A program made the position numbers and the translations under genes. A stretch of DNA of 60,607 bases, counting the filler, from Platydemus manokwari (taxonomy: Eukaryota): NCBI GenBank assembly GCA_037951405.1. It is 5 parts of 5 records of this genome, joined end to end, with 100 filler letters (N's around TTAATTAATTAA, not from the genome) between each part and the next. Parts side by side here need not be neighbours in the genome. Positions count along the whole stretch, not along the records: positions 47,360 to 60,607 come from JBBMOY011785838.1; 4 more parts are not named here. One strand, 5' to 3'. Below the pieces are notes generated by a model. The model made no database searches and had not been told where the DNA came from. It saw only the letters and a list, made by a program, of their open reading frames with translations. Of this stretch, positions 49,693 to 51,510 are shown one piece after another. Within the stretch, counting starts at the first letter, position 1. The number at the start of each line of letters is the position of its first letter.

Positions 49693-51510
49693 TTATAGCT
49701 CCGTCTCCAAGACCCCATCATACATTGCATTTGTGGGTCTATACATTCTTATTCTAATATAATTTTATGTCAACATTGTTGCCAACGTCATCGTGACGGC
49801 CAAGATTACTCCTCCTATTATTGTCATTATAGTCTCTAATGAAAATGCAACTTCTTCGGCACTTGTGGTTGCCTCCTGATACTCTTTTGTGGTTGCAGTT
49901 TGCTTTTTGCTTGTCGTTGTTAATATTAATTTTGTTGTTAACTGCTCCTTTCCTTGTTTGTATATCATCTTCTTTTCGTGATGTACCTCATTATCTAACG
50001 TTGTCCCCCTATTTGCTCATAGAAGTACACGTCAATTTCAATTGTTGATTGTTCTACAGGCACTGTTGTTTGTCCTTGCGTGCCGTTGGTTATTACTACC
50101 TTCGCGTTGTTTAAATAGACTTGCGCTATTAAACATTCCATTTTTATCCATATTATTTCTATTCCTTGTTCCTTTGATTTTACGTATACTCTACCTTCAA
50201 TATCCGGCGTTTGTACTACCACCTCTCTTGCTATCTTTTTCATTGTTAGTTGCAATTGATAAACCTCCTTAACTTGAACCTTCCTTATCCTTATTTTATG
50301 ATTGTTGGATTTGTCTCCCTGTATTTGATGTTCTATAATCCTCCTATATATTTTTCTCCAACATCTCTCTTTGGTTAGGCTAACGTGTTGGGTCACATTC
50401 GATCTAAAATCCTTCTGGGCTTATTTTGGTTTCTTCCTATAATTGCTCCCGGATGGCTTTGTATGATGAACTTTGCAAATTTCTCGTCATCCACCACGTA
50501 ACTAATAATTGACTGATGACAATTTTGTTCGCTTTCTGGTACTATTAGTAAAAATGCTGACACTACCAGAGCCATTCTTGATGCTGCTGGTCGCGCTGCT
50601 GCTCTTCTTAATGTATGCATTCTTACCCCTCTTCTCCTGCGGCCTGATGCTCGTCTACTAAGGGGTGCTATTCCTCTTGCTATGATTAGTATCATTATGA
50701 TTACCGCCACTGTTATTACTGCCCTTATGGCCTTTTCGCTTTGCTGATATTCCTGATGTAACTGGTTACTTTCGTTTTTCATTTTCTCTTCCCTATTTCG
50801 TGCAATAATAACTATTTTGTCCTTATCCTCCTGGCATGTTCTCTTCGTTAATGTACTTTTCTACTCTCCCTCTCCATCTGCGTTTATCTCTCAGCATCCT
50901 ATAATATTCTAATTCATAATTGGGTTTGCTAATTTCCTTGCTTGGTTCTTCTTTTACTTCATAGAATTCTATTGAGTTGTGAGCTACTTGTTGTGGTTTG
51001 TGGATTATTGCAATTATCGTTCCTACTGTTATTACGTTTTCCTGTTCCTTCCACTTTGTATGTCACCACCATATGTCATTGGTGAGTTCCTTTTGTTGTA
51101 TTAATTTGAACCTTCCACTTTTTATTTTGTACTTGTCTGTGCTTATTATTGTTTCATTTCTATTCTTTCTTCGCATTTTCATGTCCCTTCTTATACTGTT
51201 GTTCTCCAATTTTACCCCTTCAGTGGCGTATGCTTTTCTTCTTTCCTCGTTGTTGGTCACCCATCTGTATGTTACAACTCCGCTTATTTTTATCATAAAT
51301 TTCTCTATTTTTACTGGTAAATTGACTGGTCCCGCAATAAGTTCTTTCGGTGATTCTGTCATTTTCCTTATTGTTGTTGTTATGTTTTCTTCCCTTATCG
51401 CTATCATATTTGGCGTGACGTTATTTATTGTTCTTCCTTAAGTTGTTTGTCTCATGGCACTACCCATTATCGTTGTTATGAGTTAGTGTAAGAATACTAC
51501 TCCGGCGATT
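49693..51510 (-). pseudogene. Element B post-integrase region: two tandem type I membrane proteins
   Basis: Signal-like IAGVVFLH*LITTIMGSA, ectodomain, TM AVITVAVIIMILIIA, Arg-rich linker, signal MALVVSAFLLIV, ectodomain, Thr-rich stalk, TM IMTIIGGVILAVTMTLATML, tail ..YDGVLETEL*. Confidence 0.6.

Follow-up and report, generated by a model that had tools for sequence, protein, structure and literature searches.

A decayed GAG-ENV-POL retroelement of Platydemus manokwari with two candidate type I membrane proteins encoded past the integrase

GAG-ENV-POL elements with a gB-type envelope protein have been described by Chary and Hayashi in nematodes, bryozoans and flatworms, and the text of that paper notes that, outside Drosophila, the mechanism of transmission remains elusive (PMC13524379). 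Its six Schmidtea elements, Smed_errantivirus_1-6, share with the element analyzed here a gB-type env placed between gag and pol; the passages on them describe no post-integrase protein, and the words "accessory," "PDZ" and "fibronectin" occur 0 times in the main text (PMC13524379). For eight of the nine flatworm elements, no LTR or primer site is listed after a 3-kb extension from the POL stop (PMC13524379), which would fit long 3' regions of the kind seen in our window.

In Burro/GYPSM1, as in the locus described below, a mononegavirus-like env lies in frame between gag and pol within a long polyprotein that bears accessory domains (PMC6431247). Burro elements are ~30 kb in length, and BIR, BCL2, ankyrin and MATH domains precede their env; our element yielded none of these domains. 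The passages on Burro in that paper do not mention membrane proteins past the integrase (PMC6431247). The rotifer element Vesta resembles our locus in having small TM-containing ORFs of obscure origin downstream of pol; unlike the proteins considered here, Vesta ORF3 is the only env-like ORF of its element, is separate, and encodes 210-230 aa, and Vesta4 ORF3 has a set of Cys residues between its two TMs (PMC5408684). The passages on these ORFs also warn that TMs and sequons alone are insufficient for the assignment of an env (PMC5408684).

We analyzed a stretch of 60,607 nucleotides, filler included, joined from five parts of the P. manokwari genome (the window), which contains a decayed retroelement. 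What this copy adds is a pair of orphan, predicted membrane proteins behind the integrase, on top of a gB-type env. Our literature search, with Repbase entries and subscription papers outside its scope, returned no report of post-integrase membrane proteins in such elements.

Identity and state of the host element

The element runs from ~56500 to 47900 on the minus strand and differs from its AT-rich flanks in its higher GC content and strong strand skew. Two runs supplied contigs for comparison with other copies; of the sampled words, 0.57 were present in X1 and 0.06 in X2. The parts of the element outside the region under study are as follows.

54685..56493, minus strand: ORF1 (602 codons), which occupies the place of gag and has one atypical Cys/His cluster, an acidic region and a weakly hydrophobic end (hydrophobicity 1.4-1.6)
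53724..54742, minus strand: N-terminal half of a class III (gB-type) fusogen, in two frames (PF24664)
52625..53584, minus strand: aspartyl protease region of pol (PF13975, E 1.7e-8)
51912..52624, minus strand: RT-like stub, integrase zinc domain (PF17921, E 8.7e-20), core fragments (rve, E 0.022) and the motif VHINRCK
47900..49436, minus strand: further broken accessory reading frame (ORFs, codon score and run X1 cover)

We infer that ORF1 is gag; a Pfam search of it gave no match, and its weakly hydrophobic end is likely the signal of env. Two fragments of the fusogen upstream of the protease scored above the PF24664 cut-off of 27 bits (31.2 and 28.3 bits, covering profile positions 37-160 and 244-343 of 653) and represent the class III env of a GAG-ENV-POL errantivirus. 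The C-terminal half of the fusogen and its TM are absent from the window copy. By eye only, the fusogen has motifs in common with all six Schmidtea sequences and looks most like number 3 (PMC13524379, supplement 2). This likeness and the gene order would fit a flatworm host.

The order of pol is that of the same group, with the protease first and the integrase, including its H2C2 zinc domain, last (PF13975, PF17921 and a weak rve match). We take the RT-like stub and the C-terminal motif of the integrase to be what these names say. The RT core and RNase H of an intact element are missing, and a Pfam search of the element for RT and RNase H gave no match; the stub joins the integrase zinc domain directly, and in frame, at ~52384 on the minus strand. 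Nine run X1 contigs diverge from the window sequence at this junction, which fits a deletion in the window copy. Parts of the integrase are also missing; together with the loss of half the fusogen, this brings the internal deletions of the window copy to three or more. The element is thus a decayed, multicopy relative of the gB-type GAG-ENV-POL errantiviruses (Ty3/gypsy) and not an intact member.

As for paired LTRs, the 20 of 38 repeat families listed include none that flanks the element as a direct repeat, and its 3' side meets a gap at 47359. Short tandem repeats with periods of 13-56 lie at both ends of the element (47415-47844 and 56401-56741), in what we presume to be its UTRs. The accessory frame at 47900-49436, which consists of a 253-codon ORF with a beta-rich start followed by an acidic coiled coil, probably belongs to the element; it had no match in Pfam and Atlas searches, and its run X1 cover is lower than that of the glycoprotein region.

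Since the gB-type fusogen is encoded upstream of the protease, the post-integrase proteins are additional to env. The original prediction that they are glycoproteins extra to a fusogen therefore holds insofar as a separate class III fusogen is present; their partnership with it, also proposed there, stays conjectural.

Layout of the reading path past the integrase

The motif VHINRCK lies at 51932-51912 on the minus strand, and the integrase frame runs on from it through a coiled coil, with stops at 51566, 51485, 51440 and 51065. The segments of the path are listed below.

51567..51911, minus strand: predicted coiled coil rich in E/K/R, in frame with the integrase (from the sequence; coiled coil by eye)
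51456..51509, minus strand: signal-like segment 1 (hydropathy), with the stop at 51485 inside it and a basic N-terminal flank
50735..51455, minus strand: ectodomain 1, ~240 residues, five sequons, ~1 Cys, with the stop at 51065 and a frame switch at ~50843
50672..50731, minus strand: TM1, Kyte-Doolittle mean 2.7 over 19 residues, basic on its C-terminal side
50576..50671, minus strand: Arg-rich linker (from the sequence), predicted to be cytosolic
50540..50575, minus strand: signal-like segment 2, 12-residue core of hydrophobicity 3.0, net charge +4 before and -2 after
49939..50539, minus strand: ectodomain 2, with a beta-rich pattern, two sequons and 3 Cys, and with frame switches at ~50410 and ~50004
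49861..49938, minus strand: Thr-rich stalk, 12 Ser/Thr per 26 residues
49768..49830, minus strand: TM2, 19-residue hydrophobicity mean 2.1, acidic on its N-terminal side
49693..49767, minus strand: TAA (49767-49765), followed by a candidate cytosolic tail of 23 residues that has three Arg, YIRI and YDGV and ends in ETEL (49696)

This order agrees with what had been predicted, namely an integrase frame that passes through a coiled coil and stops into a signal-like segment and a sequon-bearing ectodomain, and then, after frameshifts, a TM, an Arg-rich linker, a second signal-like segment, an ectodomain, a Thr-rich stalk and a TM. The path uses three frames, switching at ~50843, ~50410 and ~50004. 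When trained on the gag, env and protease frames, a codon-usage score selects the same path and the same switches, although it is uninformative for the short tail. The sequons of ectodomain 1 are NVT (51422), NIT (51386), NNS (51203), NET (51158) and NES (50776), and those of ectodomain 2 are NVT (50399) and NGT (50087). A further hydrophobic-looking stretch at ~51030-51005 was considered as a TM and dropped; two contigs diverge at 51069 and another frame suits two differences close by, so that the path may have left its proper frame locally here.

Chance does not account for the membrane layout. When 620 residues were drawn at random with the composition of the element's soluble part, two or more such hydrophobic segments appeared in 7 of 1500 draws. 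Five sequons in ectodomain 1 have p ~0.02, and the two in ectodomain 2 are at chance level (p ~0.5). Hydropathy and charge place basic residues on every predicted cytosolic side, in agreement with the positive-inside rule, and support a self-consistent predicted topology of two membrane proteins.

From the gene order, with env ahead of Pol, the polyprotein would cross the ER membrane and return to the cytosol for the protease, RT and integrase. Past the integrase and the coiled coil, translocation would be reopened by signal 1 and halted at TM1, then restarted by the Arg-rich loop and signal 2 and brought to an end at TM2. Signal peptidase would free two type I proteins in amounts equal to those of Gag and gB. 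The continuity of Pol with the first protein is rather probable, and cleavage into two proteins slightly more so. The cleavage site of signal-like segment 2 is not obvious, and the lack of a clear small-residue site after its 12-residue core would suit a quite unlikely alternative, in which this segment is an uncleaved anchor and both ectodomains belong to a single multi-pass protein, joined by an Arg-rich loop in the cytosol. The core is, however, short for a TM (19-residue mean 1.58), and its basic n-region and acidic C side resemble a cleaved signal.

Other copies and searches for relatives

The interval 49640-51600 is met by 273 contigs of run X1, which cover 30 of 30 bins, and by two contigs of run X2; the copy evidence thus stems essentially from one run. 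Contig depth is not copy number, and it is the numerous differing contigs that show a family. Eight breaks interrupt the path between the integrase and the tail, and five of them are lacking in at least one related contig. Indels at the three frame switches occur in 2, 1 and 1 contigs of run X1, in the order ~50843, ~50410 and ~50004, with depths of 21.6 of 171.4, 15.8 of 33.2 and 16.8 of 59, respectively. All listed X1 contigs have a different letter at the stops 51566 and 51440, and the remaining listed X1 indels preserve the frame. The stops at 51485, 51065 and 49767 (TAA) have no entry among the 40 of 208 differences listed, all of which have ~90% or more of the depth differing, a level out of reach for low-cover places in which the window's own copy is among the contigs. 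No end-to-end intact copy was seen among the related contigs.

Third codon positions on the path hold 22 of the 40 listed differences, compared with 13 expected (p=0.004). Fixed single frames, used as controls, gave 11, 13 and 16 of 40, and the upstream gag, env and protease ORFs gave 10 of 17. The bias is clear on the side of protein 2 (49696-50620; 13 of 20 listed differences, p=0.004) and falls short of significance in ectodomain 1 (6 of 13, p=0.24). Because five of the eight breaks are absent elsewhere and third positions are favored, the post-integrase region was very probably coding in the family.

Searches for relatives returned blanks throughout. Pfam placed the post-integrase proteins in no family, viral or host; PDB sequence searches gave chance matches only, and Atlas gave no usable match for ectodomain 2. 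Among longer proteins, none of 1120 candidates was a relative of ectodomain 1 and none of 171 a relative of the fusogen fragment, and the query spanning the stalk, TM2 and tail retained none of 3. The segment from the integrase end through ectodomain 1 had no match at E 0.001 among 1.84 billion representatives, and locus scans of viral and metagenome contigs were empty. Since the fusogen fragment is also without a relative, the collections appear to be poor in this lineage, which makes the blanks weak and leaves novelty unproven. Single-sequence AlphaFold models, made with no alignments, reached pLDDT values of 39.9 and 48.6 and were unusable. No paralogy between the two ectodomains was detectable (E 7.2).

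The absence of any viral homologue or family would suit a captured fragment of a host gene, carried as passive cargo with no role for the element. The searches found no host-protein family either, however, and the region is in frame with the integrase, shares the codon usage and strand skew of the element, and has the third-position bias among copies; we consider such cargo very unlikely.

Two identities suggested by appearance gained no support. The membrane-proximal part of ectodomain 1 (51000-50760) looks, by eye, like a fibronectin type III domain, and neither Pfam (E up to 10) nor PDB sequences gave an FN3 match, including with the X-bridged reading across 50843; with a decayed copy and a single sequence searched, the likeness is a lead only. 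The arrangement signal-ectodomain-TM-signal-ectodomain-TM is also that of bunyavirus-type Gn/Gc precursors. Despite this layout, a Gn/Gc identity is ruled out by the ~1 and 3 Cys of the two ectodomains and by the lack of a Pfam or PDB match; the window proteins are in addition too short for a class II Gc, and the fusogen of the element is encoded elsewhere. The likeness to viral glycoprotein precursors that had been claimed thus survives for the layout and fails for sequence and Cys content. Cys-poor, basic ectodomains are unusual among viral glycoproteins.

The tail, possible roles and neighboring features

The tail past the TAA contains the predicted YDGV and ETEL, as a pattern only. With the TAA as the true end, TM2 would have zero cytosolic residues, whereas the read-on tail opens with three Arg. 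A YxxPhi word arises in a tail of this length with a chance of ~18%, a class I PDZ end with ~2%, and 23 open codons past a stop with ~15%; by themselves, the tail motifs are weak to moderate evidence. Cover is thin over the tail (48-79, compared with 72-2147 elsewhere), and one contig has an in-frame indel inside it. The sole X2 contig over the tail (depth 2.1), which is possibly the same copy, is identical to the window including the TAA.

These data bear on two readings of the tail. It is somewhat probable that the tail is translated and that its YxxPhi and PDZ signals would determine where at the membrane the protein is displayed or budding occurs. A 2010 report by Ilinskaya, cited in PMC3395148, reportedly found that both a Tyr and a PDZ motif regulate HTLV-1 Env, and this Env would be a precedent for the two motifs in one envelope tail. 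Endocytosis through YxxL has been described for HIV-1 Env in a further report (PMC3395148). A parallel with an "ETRL" end of rabies G was dropped, as a literature search combining it with PDZ returned none. The second reading, possible and the less probable of the two, takes the TAA at 49767 as the true end of protein 2, with a tail-less or GPI-like anchor, and YDGV and ETEL as chance words in the 3' UTR. The chance levels of the open run and of YxxPhi, the thin cover, and the TAA kept in the X2 contig are consistent with it, but the rarity of a class I PDZ end, the basic residues directly past TM2 and the in-frame indel argue for translation. The 3' UTR reading concerns the tail only and is compatible with accessory surface proteins upstream of it.

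We propose that both proteins would be accessory surface proteins, attaching particles or producer cells to neighboring cells, with membranes fused by the separate gB-type protein. The explanation as a whole, a decayed gag-env-pol element whose reading path continues past the integrase into two type I accessory surface proteins, is evenly poised between right and wrong, and the putative attachment role is more doubtful than that. If the explanation is true, a retroelement would be able to build a multi-glycoprotein surface, and surface proteins at the Pol end would be candidates for the receptor-binding or targeting step in how gB-type fusogens find cells and get triggered. Env-bearing retrotransposons are described as having one envelope protein, and surveys that score just gag, env, RT and integrase would overlook such proteins.

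Herpesviruses combine gB, a class III fusogen, with the accessory glycoproteins gH/gL/gD, and the likeness of the element to them is in arrangement only. In a stronger version of our proposal, a single polyprotein in one clade of flatworm retroelements would encode an entry machine of several components, like that of herpesviruses. It would consist of a gB-type fusogen ahead of Pol and, past the integrase, two unrelated glycoproteins that serve attachment or triggering and form a new family, the last of them directed to cell contacts by PDZ and endocytic signals; we regard this as unlikely.

The main rival is equally improbable and accepts the proteins as real. They would be kept in the membrane of the producer cell as host modulators (a receptor decoy, a superinfection block, or a binder of PDZ scaffolds or polarity proteins) and would not be partners of the fusogen. 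Ectodomains poor in Cys, together with the trafficking and PDZ signals of the tail, are consistent with such a role. In the published accounts, planarian Burro elements bear many host-regulatory accessory domains (PMC6431247), and gB-type errantiviruses elsewhere are described with a single env (PMC13524379). Against this rival, proteins translated together with Gag, gB and Pol would match particles in amount and timing, and adhesion is a natural use for an ectodomain that is glycosylated and carried on a Thr-rich stalk.

The window contains further features outside the element. The long ORFs at 40280-41404 and 42764-43948 on the minus strand (374 and 394 codons) had no significant Pfam match. 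A host exon at 8631-9833 on the minus strand encodes part of a family 3 GPCR (7tm_3, E 8e-40, with a nine-cysteine domain), as expected of an animal host, and a 325-codon ORF with a RING finger lies at 3378-4355 on the plus strand. At ~37530-38500 there is a long tandem array whose period is 13/26 bases, and the plus strand at ~59400-60250, which is GC-richer and purine-skewed, resembles the start of another mobile-element ORF.
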